A stretch of 64,000 nucleotides of DNA from an uncultured Lentimicrobium sp. GTDB taxonomy: Bacteria > Bacteroidota > Bacteroidia > Bacteroidales > Lentimicrobiaceae. The stretch's first letter is position 1; each line of letters begins with the position of its first letter. The stretch spans positions 1,426-65,425 of the forward strand of contig CAZJPP010000014.1 of NCBI GenBank assembly GCA_964547915.1. The letters run 5' to 3'. Of the stretch, positions 28,146-31,595 are shown piece after piece. A model generated the notes under the pieces. It saw nothing but the letters and a program-made list of their open reading frames with translations, ran no database searches and was not told the DNA's origin. A program made the position numbers and the translations under genes.

Positions 28146-31100
28146 ATGAAGAATTTATTACTTACAATCTGCGTATTATTTCAGGCTTTAATCACTATCC
28201 CCGCTTTAGCGCAGGACAGGCAGGTTTATATACTGAATAATTCAGAGGTACAGGAGCCACAGTTTGTTGTTACCGAAGTAGAGAACCAGATCCTCATCGA
28301 TCTCACATTAGGAAGCTTCACCTCCATCACAGAAGAGGGACAATCAGACTCACGCATACTGCTAACCGAAGGAATTAATGTAATTGAAAAAGGACAACCT
28401 GATATTCAACACCTCGCTGTAAGTATAGCTATCCCATCAATGGGAAAAACAAATGCTGTAATAACCTCAACCAAATATACCGACTATCAGCTGTTTTCTG
28501 TAAAAGCTTCAAAGGGTGACCCGGGAATTTACAATGATAACGATAACACACCTGCATACGACCAGTCAATCTATCAAAATAACGCCTTCTGGCCATCTCA
28601 GAATGTTGTCGCATCCGATCCTTATATCTGGGCAGGAATACGCGGACAATCATTACATTTCTACCCTGTACAATACAATCCAGTAACCAAAACTTTAAGG
28701 GTTCACCATAAAATATCAGTAAAGCTTGAGCTAACTTCCGAGAAAGGCATAAATGAATTGAGCTATGACTTCATTCCAAATAAACTACAATCGCTTGCTG
28801 AATCACATTTCAGAAACCAGGTAAACAGCTCATATTTTGCCGCTTCACAATCTGACAGATACATGGCACCTGTTGAAGCAGGCAACATGCTGGTAATTGC
28901 CCACCCCGATTTTATTAAAGAACTTCAGCCGTTCATTGAATGGAAAAATCAAAAAGGCATTCCAACTGAATTAGTCGATGTGACTACGATTACAAACGGA
29001 ACGGCCAATGATGCACAAACAATAAAGGATTTTGTAAGAGATTATTACCTGACAAATGGCCTTACTTACCTGGTACTTGCCGGTGATGCAGCGTTTGTAC
29101 CTACCTGCCATGCAGAAAAGGGAGCCAGTGATAATATGTATGGATACATTTTAGGCGATGACTCATACCCTGAAGTTTTAGTTGGAAGATTCCCCTGCTC
29201 GAATGCTTCTGAATGCAAGGTTATGGTTGAAAAGACCGTTCAATATGAGAAAAACCCTGTTGTCAGCGATGCATATTCCAGGTTCGTTGGTATTGCAAGT
29301 GGTTTAGGCCCCGGAGATGATGGTGAAATGGATTATGAGCACATCAGAAACATCACTGAAGATTTAACAAACACAGTTTATAAGTCAGTCTCTGAGCTTT
29401 ATGATGGAAACAGGGAAGGTAATGACCTTTCGGGAAATCCTACAGCCCAAATGGTATCAGGTGAATTTACAAGTGGTGCCGGAGCTATCATGTATATCGG
29501 TCATGGTTCATCAGGAAGCTGGGTTACCAGTGGATTTTCAAGTGCCGATGCAAAAAATCTTACAAACACAATTCACCCCTTCATCTGGTCTGCCGGCTGT
29601 AATAACGGCGACTTTGAATTTACCAATTGTCTGGCTGAGGCCCTTCTTAAATCAGAATCAGATGGAAAGCCGACAGGTGCAATTGCTACCTTAATGTCAT
29701 CAGCTTCACAAACATGGTATCCACCGATGGAAGCACAGGATGAAATAGCATTGGTTCTTGGAGGACAAAGAAGTCTTAATCAGGTCAACACATTTGGCGG
29801 GGTATCAATGAGTGGATGTATGCAAATGAATGATACATATGGCCTGGCCGGTGCCAGAAACACTGATATATGGGTACTGTTTGGTGATCCGTCACTTGAA
29901 CTCCGTACTGCTTTCCCCGGAACTCTGGCTCCTGTTCATTCTGAAAACACAGGCAGTGATGCAACTTCTTTCACTATTACCAATATTGTCCCGGGAACAA
30001 CCATTTGTGCTTCCTCAAAAGGGAAAATCATTGCTTCCGTTGTATCAGAAGAATCAGCAGCTACTATTGAACTATCGGGATTAGACCAGATTACCTGGTT
30101 CACCCTGACTCTTACTGCAAAAAACCGCATTCCTTATATTGCAGAGGTTAAAGTTACCGACATGCCTGCCAGAGCAATTAATCCTGTTCCGGGCAGCAAC
30201 ACTTACAAAATATCAAAGAATACCGGTTTTACCTGGAGCTTATCAGATGGATGCACTCCTCATGAATACACTTTCAGGCTTCGTCAGAAAGGAACTGAGC
30301 AGTGGCAGGATCAGTCGGTTACATCAGCCGATGAAATTGAAGCAGCCAATCTGCAGTACAACACAGCTTATGAATGGAAAGTAATCTCGAAAAACGAAAA
30401 AGGCACTGCTGAAAGTGAAGTCTTCAATTTCACAACTATTGATGCACCCGATGAAGATTTTGAACAGAATAGTTTCCCCAGGAATGCATGGGAGAATCTT
30501 AACAACTGGTATGTAGATGATTCAGAAGCTTTTGAAGGCACATATTCAATCCATTCAGGCAGCACAACCGCCAATTCAACCAGCTCTCTCATCTATTCTT
30601 GTGAAACCTTATCATGCGACTATATCTCCTTTGCATTCAAAACAAATATCCACTCAACAGGAAGTAAGCTTGAGTTTTTCATCGACGATTTTATGGTTGC
30701 CGAATGGGATTACACAAACAATTGGAACACTTTCATCTATCAGGTAGAAGCAGGGCTACATCAGCTTGAATGGAGATTCACTTCCACAGATACCACTGAC
30801 AGTGAGTCTGCTGCATGGCTCGATAACATTTATCTTCCTGTAAATACACCGCTTGAGATATCATCACTCGAACAATCTGTTTGTCCAACAAACTTTGTTA
30901 TGGTTGATACCGAGATCACAAACTACTCATCAATACGTTGGGAAACAACCGGCACCGGTAGCTTTGACGACATGACCCGGTCGAATCCGGTCTATTTCCC
31001 TTCAACCGAAGACCTGCAGAATGAAACCATTATTCTCAGGGCTAACATCATTGCTAATGAAACCTGTGGCATTGAAGTTTACGACTATGTAATCAACGTT

Positions 31101-31595
31101 GCTGCATTACCCGAGATACCCGAAATTAACGACACTACTTTATACCTTGGAGAATCAATTTCACTAAGTAAACTAAAGAATGACACCAAACAATTCTTAA
31201 TCTGCGGAACAACAACCTTTGAATTACCATTGGTTATTGACCAATCAATACTGAAACCGGGACCTAACACCCTGACCATTATAATGGAAAACGAGATGGG
31301 ATGCTCTTCAACTGAAGAATTCACTGTAAACCTCATAGATCACGAAAGACCCGGAAAATCAGAATTAATGGTTTATCCGAATCCTGCATCTGAAAAGCTC
31401 AATGTATTGATTCCGGAGGCTTCCAATAACCCCTTGATTTCAATATTCAGTCTCGAAGGTCAGCTTGTTGAAAGCAGTCAGTTTGACCAGAACAATTCAT
31501 CTTCAATAGAAATAAGTAACCTGAAACCCGGCCTTTATATAATCAGAGCAGAATATGATGGCACTGTATCGACCGGAAGGTTTGTAAAGATCTAA
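28146..31595 (+). CDS. Arg-gingipain (Rgp)-like C25 cysteine peptidase with FN3-like, adhesin-like and Ig-like domains and T9SS CTD
   Basis: Colinear with recalled RgpB: PVQYNPVTKTLR, SDR|YMAP processing site, EWKNQKG, LTYLVLAGD, EVLVGRF, GIASGLGPGDDGEMD (S1 Asp at 29331), YIGHGS (His at 29502), AGCNNGDF (Cys at 29598), QTWYPPM, FGDPSL; CTD VYPNPA...GLYIIRA. Confidence 0.93.
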   Translation: MKNLLLTICVLFQALITIPALAQDRQVYILNNSEVQEPQFVVTEVENQILIDLTLGSFTSITEEGQSDSRILLTEGINVIEKGQPDIQHLAVSIAIPSMGKTNAVITSTKYTDYQLFSVKASKGDPGIYNDNDNTPAYDQSIYQNNAFWPSQNVVASDPYIWAGIRGQSLHFYPVQYNPVTKTLRVHHKISVKLELTSEKGINELSYDFIPNKLQSLAESHFRNQVNSSYFAASQSDRYMAPVEAGNMLVIAHPDFIKELQPFIEWKNQKGIPTELVDVTTITNGTANDAQTIKDFVRDYYLTNGLTYLVLAGDAAFVPTCHAEKGASDNMYGYILGDDSYPEVLVGRFPCSNASECKVMVEKTVQYEKNPVVSDAYSRFVGIASGLGPGDDGEMDYEHIRNITEDLTNTVYKSVSELYDGNREGNDLSGNPTAQMVSGEFTSGAGAIMYIGHGSSGSWVTSGFSSADAKNLTNTIHPFIWSAGCNNGDFEFTNCLAEALLKSESDGKPTGAIATLMSSASQTWYPPMEAQDEIALVLGGQRSLNQVNTFGGVSMSGCMQMNDTYGLAGARNTDIWVLFGDPSLELRTAFPGTLAPVHSENTGSDATSFTITNIVPGTTICASSKGKIIASVVSEESAATIELSGLDQITWFTLTLTAKNRIPYIAEVKVTDMPARAINPVPGSNTYKISKNTGFTWSLSDGCTPHEYTFRLRQKGTEQWQDQSVTSADEIEAANLQYNTAYEWKVISKNEKGTAESEVFNFTTIDAPDEDFEQNSFPRNAWENLNNWYVDDSEAFEGTYSIHSGSTTANSTSSLIYSCETLSCDYISFAFKTNIHSTGSKLEFFIDDFMVAEWDYTNNWNTFIYQVEAGLHQLEWRFTSTDTTDSESAAWLDNIYLPVNTPLEISSLEQSVCPTNFVMVDTEITNYSSIRWETTGTGSFDDMTRSNPVYFPSTEDLQNETIILRANIIANETCGIEVYDYVINVAALPEIPEINDTTLYLGESISLSKLKNDTKQFLICGTTTFELPLVIDQSILKPGPNTLTIIMENEMGCSSTEEFTVNLIDHERPGKSELMVYPNPASEKLNVLIPEASNNPLISIFSLEGQLVESSQFDQNNSSSIEISNLKPGLYIIRAEYDGTVSTGRFVKI

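Follow-up and report, generated by a model that had tools for sequence, protein, structure and literature searches.

An RgpB-type C25 peptidase precursor of Lentimicrobium with an altered zymogen build

The inhibitory loop in the propeptide of the Porphyromonas gingivalis peptidase RgpB (Lys121-Tyr135) matches the substrate specificity of the enzyme and inserts Arg126 into its S1 pocket (PMC4138498). Autoprocessing takes place at both Arg126 and Arg229, and the cut at Arg229 depends on an earlier one at Arg126 (PMC4357240). A 64,000-nucleotide stretch of contig CAZJPP010000014.1 from an uncultured Lentimicrobium sp. (hereafter the window) contains a gene, 28146-31595, whose product resembles RgpB and has no arginine in this loop, which raises the question of how such a zymogen would be kept latent and how it would be activated. 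A preliminary description of the gene had proposed an Arg-specific, self-maturing enzyme whose zymogen control may work differently. Our analysis points to a type IX secretion system (T9SS)-secreted endopeptidase precursor of the RgpB type (MEROPS family C25, clan CD) with an altered zymogen build, likely Arg-cleaving, and we regard this account as probable.

The reading frame is open and complete on the forward strand and encodes 1149 residues. Searching these by phmmer against all PDB chains returned RgpB (1cvr) with E=9.9e-73, the RgpB prodomain (4ief_A) with E=3.3e-20 and Kgp with E=1.4e-9. An AlphaFold2 model built from 63 homologues had a mean predicted local distance difference test score (pLDDT) of 84, and Foldseek superposed it on 1cvr with a template modelling score (TMt) of 0.93 and a root-mean-square deviation of 1.8 Å over 437 columns, on the RgpB prodomain with a TMt of 0.82 and on Kgp with a TMt of 0.80. 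Because the match to 1cvr combines E=1e-72 with a TM of 0.93, chance resemblance is ruled out, and the likeness to RgpB is homology. RgpB (P. gingivalis gingipain R2; PDB 1CVR for the mature enzyme, 4IEF for the zymogen complex) and the Lentimicrobium protein are about 34% identical and have in common the order of propeptide, catalytic domain, immunoglobulin superfamily (IgSF) domain and T9SS C-terminal sorting domain (CTD). PF08126 (Propeptide_C25) matched residues 56-196 with 79.3 bits (cut-off 22), PF01364 (Peptidase_C25) matched residues 248-586 with 185.6 bits (cut-off 23) and positions 1-374 of the 374 in the profile covered, and PF03785 (C25 Ig-like domain) matched residues 597-669 with 30.1 bits (cut-off 25). 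The PF01364 score, a His/Cys dyad set in G-H-G and A/G-C motifs, and a caspase-like fold with an IgSF domain place the protein in family C25. A type A CTD (PF18962, 50.4 bits, residues 1076-1142; TIGR04183, 51 bits) and an N-terminal signal peptide read from the sequence mark it as a T9SS cargo, and after removal of the predicted signal peptide the N-terminus would be Gln23. The protein differs from RgpB in carrying about 400 additional residues of beta-sandwich domains between the IgSF domain and the CTD, as well as in its origin from an environmental bacterium and in the candidate sigma-54 promoter of its gene. Within these additional residues, an Fn3-like stretch (residues 700-766) scored below the Pfam threshold and a Pfam scan of residues 766-1075 gave no match. 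Residues E770, E773, W782, W788 and D893 are invariant among relatives, and the beta-sandwich domains of residues ~770-1065 are possibly binding modules.

Two other C25 types were weighed and rejected. Kgp (PDB 4RBM, 5MUN) has the family, the fold and the principle of propeptide-based latency in common with the Lentimicrobium protein, and its inhibitory-loop residue is reportedly Lys; however, the match to Kgp reaches only about 1e-9, and Kgp has Tyr where this protein has Met528 (RgpB Met288) and Gly at the Asp163 position of Rgp and this protein. The T9SS sortase PorU likewise has the catalytic fold in common, and was rejected on a score of 87.5 bits against the PorU model NF033707, whose cut-off is 420.

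With the family assigned, the specificity of the enzyme depends on its S1 pocket. In RgpB the P1 Arg forms a bidentate salt bridge to Asp163 and hydrogen bonds to Gly210, Gly212, Gln282 and Trp284, the last of which acts as a lid (PMC4357240), while the base of the pocket is formed by Val242 and Thr209, and Met288 is replaced by Tyr in Kgp (PMC9559808). The phmmer alignment pairs Asp396 with Asp163, His453 with His211, Cys485 with Cys244, Gln522 with Gln282, Trp524 with Trp284 and Met528 with Met288, a MAFFT alignment agrees, and Gly210 and Gly212 are retained as Gly452 and Gly454. Asp396 ends the segment GIASGLGPGDDGEMD (residues 382-396; Asp396 codon from 29331), and its equivalent does not vary across the 264 family sequences examined, including 216/216 outside the clade defined below and the clade members listed. 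His453 and Cys485 (codon from 29598) are 32 residues apart, against 33 for His211 and Cys244. Across 120/120 close homologues the dyad and the S1 determinants equivalent to Asp163, Trp284, Gln282, Gly210/212 and Met288 are invariant. Since the S1 determinants of RgpB are all retained, P1-Arg specificity is very likely by sequence comparison. The preliminary description had already assigned the S1 Asp, the His/Cys spacing and, in QTWYPP (residues 522-527), the Trp284-equivalent lid; these assignments held in the alignments, the motifs and coordinates it quoted (28857, 29331, 29502, 29598, QTWYPP and SKGDPGIYND) were all present, and its proposal of Arg specificity stands as far as sequence and fold go. 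The pocket departs from RgpB at its floor, where Ala483 and Ile451 take the places of Val242 and Thr209 and Gly484 that of Ala243. The position of the third active-site residue Glu152 is occupied by Leu387, and is Q in 53, L in 42 and E in 21 of the 120 homologues, so that it does not define the wider family. The intact dyad also led us to reject a pseudo-protease. In the RgpB-like representatives P0138, P0159 and P0188 the catalytic His is replaced by Val (YTGVG...), and these are likely pseudo-proteases; the Trp284 lid is missing from three further representatives, P0187, P0210 and P0220.

The zymogen, unlike the pocket, lacks a defining feature of RgpB. The Propeptide_C25 domain is present, as is a predicted junction of Arg followed by Tyr. 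In the loop, SKGDPGIYND (residues 122-131) aligns to RgpB SKGVISRAEN, as the preliminary description had read it, and both phmmer and MAFFT place Ile128 (28527-28529) on Arg126; no Arg or Lys occurs in residues 124-137. Two further basic propeptide residues are also lost, so that this protein carries K89H, R128I and Ala in place of Arg163, at the RgpB Arg161 position. The model gave the loop a pLDDT of 64-68, against 83-89 in the Arg-bearing control P0097, a canonical (clade-A) relative modelled at equal alignment depth, even though P0097 scored lower overall (80.4); the low value agrees with the relaxed sequence of the loop.

Whether this loop is peculiar to one protein was answered by the family at large. 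A word-indexed search recovered 668 proteins with E<1e-10 among 8000 candidates scored, the named matches being 'C25 family cysteine peptidase' from Lentimicrobium or from Bacteroidales metagenome-assembled genomes, while an exhaustive phmmer search of 1.84 billion representatives gave 11,835 matches with E<1e-3 and 1,330 with E<1e-30. The alignment comprised the 120 best matches, another 141 representatives and segments of RgpB; throughout it, the equivalents of Asp163, His211, Cys244, Gln282, Trp284 and Met288 were invariant or almost so. A FastTree phylogeny computed from the catalytic domain revealed that 48 sequences, the Lentimicrobium protein's clade, are monophyletic (support 0.998), and that neighbouring branches, which look like intermediates, retain the Arg in a GDP/GDL-I-R context. 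The loop Arg is present in 211/216 RgpB-like proteins outside this clade and in 0/48 within it. By this tree, the missing Arg is a derived, clade-wide state. The motif of the clade is G-D-P-[G/Q]-hydrophobic, with GDP invariant, and at the exact register of Arg126, anchored on G-D-P, the residue is F in 14, L in 14, I in 12 and Y in 4 of 47 sequences, and is thus hydrophobic in 44/47. Constraint on the upstream half of the loop is tighter in the variant clade than in the canonical clade, while the descending half, conserved as D-I-D-P-x-x-V-P-Y in the canonical clade, is freely variable. Compensation by a basic residue at another place in the loop was considered and rejected, as 36/48 clade members have no R or K in 124-137 and the clade shows no newly conserved basic position in the propeptide apart from the weakly conserved position 70. 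Both of the additional losses extend to the clade: Lys89 has become His, and the Arg161 position has changed from Arg to Ala, Gly or Cys (Arg 0% vs 96%).

The alignment columns that best separate the clades, in RgpB numbering, are loop positions 125/126, the S1-floor and neighbouring positions 242, 243, 207 and 209, and Ala285, which is replaced by Tyr. Val242 is Ala in 100% of the clade vs 4% elsewhere and Thr209 is Ile in 80% vs 11%, a pair that may represent a volume-compensating swap; Ala243 to Gly and Asn207 to Met accompany them. The canonical environmental RgpB-like proteins, to which P0097 and the Rgp-type gene on contig C34 of the Lentimicrobium genome belong, make up the large majority of the family (1330 representative clusters with E<1e-30) and have family, architecture and genus in common with the variant protein at ~35-41% identity. 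They differ from it in the motifs SKGN[FL]xRDIDP with its Arg plug, WSVAC and QSW[ND]PPM and in a junction residue that is R or K, and P0097 is closer to RgpB (1e-96; prodomain 2e-38). On these grounds the suggestion that zymogen control may work differently is strengthened, since the loss of the loop Arg is a property of the whole clade and comes together with S1-floor changes and losses of basic residues; as far as its predicted layout goes, the zymogen is built differently from that of RgpB and of ~98% of RgpB-like proteins.

The second processing site of RgpB, by comparison, is kept. Residues 236-242 read SDRYMAP (Arg238 codon from 28857), and Arg238-Tyr239 fits the family motif [RK]-Y-T-P-V, which aligns to residue 1 of mature RgpB, 1cvr starting with YTPVEE. 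Of the RgpB maturation site ATR-YTP given in the preliminary description, the R-Y junction stood, both by this alignment and by the published Arg229 (PMC4357240). Tyr239 is kept in 116/120 homologues, and the junction residue is Arg in 48/48 clade members, vs R in 43% and K in 38% elsewhere. Residues 233-242 had a pLDDT <50 and were modelled as disordered, as was the equivalent stretch of P0097. This conservation is consistent with self-maturation at Arg238. Among the canonical RgpB-like proteins, the junction residue is Lys in 81/216; an Arg-specific enzyme should not cut itself there, a hint that in many environmental genomes such proteins are cross-activated by partners of the Kgp type.

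The assembly (2.96 Mb, ~94% complete) contains seven C25 genes, three in the window, two on contig C6 and two on contig C34. The pair on C6 encodes high-scoring PF01364 proteins of 1167 and 1304 residues that align poorly to RgpB-type sequences and, by score and length, are possibly PorU-type. The pair on C34 (locus L010) is a tandem of a Kgp-type gene (8424-12344; 4rbm, E=6.9e-94) and a canonical Rgp-type gene (12390-16220) with the motifs SKGNFKRDINP, ISVAC and QSWAPPM. The two other C25 genes of the window, 14173-16494 and 20515-24243 on the forward strand, are very divergent: the best PDB match of the first is Kgp at 5e-8 (RgpB at 1e-5) and that of the second is RgpB at 1.8e-17, and in the second RDHG replaces [TI]GHG at the catalytic His. 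Because both are far more remote, an RgpB-type pocket can be read in the window only in 28146-31595. A survey of 39 species-level genomes of the genus gave at least one match in 38 and two in 29. When 20 of these matches were read, 13/13 of ~1150-1200 residues carried WSAGC/WAAGC and W[YF]PPM, 11 of them with a readable loop of the form GDP[GQA]-hydrophobic and two in which the loop pattern was not captured, while 7/7 of ~1280 residues carried the Arg loop and WSVAC/ISVAC. Both paralogues occur together in all 5 genomes in which both were read; judged from these genomes, the variant and canonical forms are a stable paralogue pair. The canonical Rgp-type paralogue, present in every sampled genome, could cut Arg238 in trans.

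The surroundings of the gene were compared across five loci (the window, L001, L002, L012 and L013). In the window, genes for a hybrid histidine kinase and a sigma-54 enhancer-binding protein (24404-27923) immediately precede the variant C25 gene, and the order second C25 gene, hybrid histidine kinase, sigma-54 activator and variant C25 is kept in 5/5 loci, even where protein identity falls to 38%. Between the activator gene and the candidate promoter lies a hairpin terminator (27946-27972). The GGCAT-N5-TTGC element of this promoter is identical in the window and L001 and lies at -48 and -49 in L001 and L002; L012 and L013 have near-matches to it (GGAAC-N5-TTGC / TTGA). The strict pattern GGCAYN5TTGCW misses the element of the window by its last base, and a relaxed scan finds it. 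Downstream, an S8 subtilase with a CTD, a possible processing partner, is the next gene in 3/5 loci (window, L001 and L002), and L012 has an S8 gene ~5.5 kb downstream for which no CTD match was recorded. The second gene downstream in the window encodes a homologue of the P. gingivalis peptidylarginine deiminase PPAD, which matched PDB 6i0x with E=7e-132 over residues 53-476, agmatine deiminases scoring 1e-11 or worse, and which has YNRPRPNDDE and TDALHCR in common with PPAD in the alignment. A PPAD homologue is also found in L002, and S8 and PAD_porph genes, both encoding a CTD, lie downstream in closer relatives; pPAD genes have been described as 'more widespread than previously thought' (PMC8826395). 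P. gingivalis PPAD acts on C-terminal Arg exposed by Rgp (PMC9559808), and the co-located homologue fits P1-Arg specificity of the variant C25 for that reason. The coordinates of all these features are collected in Table 1.

Table 1. Features of the variant C25 gene and its surroundings (positions in the window).
Feature	Position	Strand	Basis
Candidate sigma-54 (-24/-12) promoter GGCATaccacTTGC	28099..28112	+	47 nt before start codon; consensus match only
RgpB-type C25 cysteine peptidase precursor, T9SS cargo	28146..31595	+	complete open reading frame, 1149 aa
Signal peptide, residues 1-22, cut between ALA and Q	28146..28211	+	read from sequence; model helix 2-16; cleavage position inferred
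Propeptide (N-terminal prodomain), residues 23-238	28212..28859	+	PF08126, 4ief_A, Foldseek
Counterpart of RgpB inhibitory loop Lys121-Tyr135: KGDPGIYNDNDNTPA, residues 123-137	28512..28556	+	phmmer, MAFFT
Arg238 of predicted junction Arg238-Tyr239 (RgpB Arg229-Tyr230)	28857..28859	+	alignment, model
C25 catalytic domain, residues 239-590	28860..29915	+	PF01364, 1cvr match, fold
Asp396, S1 charge anchor (RgpB Asp163)	29331..29333	+	phmmer, alignment
Catalytic His453 (RgpB His211) in YIGHG; Ile451 at S1-floor Thr209 position	29502..29504	+	alignment
Ala483-Gly484-Cys485; Cys485 catalytic (RgpB Cys244); Ala483/Gly484 at S1-floor Val242/Ala243	29592..29600	+	alignment
Q522-T-W524-Y-P-P-M528: Gln282, Trp284 lid and Met288 of RgpB S1	29709..29729	+	phmmer, alignment
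IgSF domain, residues 597-671	29934..30158	+	PF03785; 1cvr alignment reaches residue 432
FN3-like beta-sandwich, residues 677-766	30174..30443	+	sub-threshold Fn3-type Pfam matches; strands pLDDT >90
Beta-sandwich domains, residues ~770-898 and 905-1065	30453..31340	+	all-beta model, pLDDT 73-95
T9SS type A C-terminal sorting domain, residues 1076-1149 and stop codon	31371..31595	+	PF18962, TIGR04183
S8 subtilase with T9SS CTD	31841-33811	+	next gene downstream of variant C25
PPAD homologue, 800-aa T9SS cargo (PAD_porph and CTD)	33834-36236	+	two genes downstream of variant C25

From these observations we propose the following sequence of events. The precursor would be exported by Sec and transported by the T9SS through its CTD, its propeptide would be removed at Arg238-Tyr239, and the mature product would consist of the catalytic-plus-IgSF core followed by the beta-sandwich domains. 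It would then cleave after Arg by means of the His453/Cys485 dyad, with the P1 guanidinium paired with Asp396 beneath the Trp524 lid. In the ancestry of the clade, the propeptide Arg would have been swapped for a conserved hydrophobic residue and the S1 floor re-packed (V242A, T209I, A243G and N207M). Lacking both an Arg partner for Asp396 and a loop site at which an Arg-specific enzyme could make the first cut, the zymogen cannot take the RgpB route; since that route is closed yet the new loop motif is strongly constrained, a hydrophobic plug or lid that an Arg-specific enzyme could not cleave is favoured. Latency would then be brought about by steric or hydrophobic occlusion, or would be weaker, instead of depending on an Arg-Asp salt bridge. 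Because the plug would be uncuttable by an Arg-specific enzyme, activation would proceed through the single site at Arg238, cleaved either in cis or by the canonical paralogue of Rgp type, and transcription would probably be driven by the adjacent sigma-54 two-component system. Several points weigh against this proposal: cleavage at Arg238 in cis and in trans are not separable by the present evidence, the promoter is a candidate read from a consensus match, and the pLDDT difference in the loop is a weak indicator that carries little weight. In addition, the proposed third catalytic residue of RgpB, Glu152, is Leu387 here, although this position is probably dispensable, and the altered S1 floor could change specificity.

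The alternative that survives best, though we hold it to be unlikely, is a two-tier cascade in which the uncleavable hydrophobic plug prevents self-activation altogether and Arg238 is cut in trans by the canonical paralogue or the S8 subtilase. It would account for the missing Arg126 site, given the order of cuts in RgpB, and it is in keeping with the canonical paralogue in every genome sampled for both forms and with the S8 genes near four of the five loci; these partners are, however, candidates by gene co-occurrence, and the strict junction Arg is equally compatible with self-cleavage. Moreover, an R126A/R229A zymogen of RgpB retains some latent activity (PMC4357240), so a slow cut at Arg238 in cis would be possible. 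Were the cascade real, the genus would possess two zymogen tiers, a self-activating enzyme with an Arg plug and a sigma-54-controlled variant armed by the former or by another protease; this arrangement, which we likewise think improbable, would amount to a bacterial extracellular protease cascade made by re-wiring a pseudo-substrate loop.

A changed specificity and a propeptide that serves as a chaperone are both less likely than a hydrophobic plug. In the first, the clade would prefer a non-basic or modified P1 residue, and the retention of Asp396 would reflect a structural role or a Ca site. The loop residue of RgpB mirrors the P1 residue of the substrate (PMC4138498), and in the clade this register is hydrophobic, the strongest clade-separating sites are the loop and the S1 floor, and the floor itself has become more hydrophobic (Ala242, Ile209 and Met207). 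Yet the equivalents of Asp163, Gln282, Trp284 and Met288 are invariant in both clades, V242A and T209I resemble a volume-compensating swap, the junction Arg is stricter than in the canonical clade, and a homologue of PPAD, a user of C-terminal Arg, is co-located, so that we give a shift in specificity little credence. Least credible of all is a propeptide acting as a folding scaffold without latency, with control left to sigma-54 transcription and secretion, which the loss of three otherwise conserved basic propeptide residues, the relaxed, low-pLDDT downstream half of the loop and the dedicated regulator adjoining the gene in 5/5 loci might suggest, but which is opposed by the tightly constrained upstream half (invariant G-D-P and a hydrophobic residue), arguing for a docking role, and by the conservation of the propeptide fold and of the greater part of the interface core.

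In most respects the gene is typical of its very large family, and the abundance of C25 peptidases in anoxic sediments, where they dominate the exported peptidase genes, was already known (PMC6752024); the modest novelty is the zymogen variant. The toolkit of Rgp, Kgp and PPAD, best known as virulence factors of P. gingivalis, occurs in environmental Bacteroidales, the genome analyzed here carrying all three, and presumably serves there in protein scavenging. Zymogen latency in gingipains is known only from the P. gingivalis enzymes, in which a basic plug mirrors the specificity and also provides the site of the first activating cut. The variant clade, present in most species of a single genus and represented by no fewer than 48 sequence clusters, is a natural experiment in which the charge of the plug has been lost and the Arg-binding pocket left intact. 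As such, it offers a useful test case for the relative contributions of the Arg-Asp salt bridge and the remaining interface to inhibition, for how the order of activation is enforced, and for the design of propeptide-derived inhibitors.

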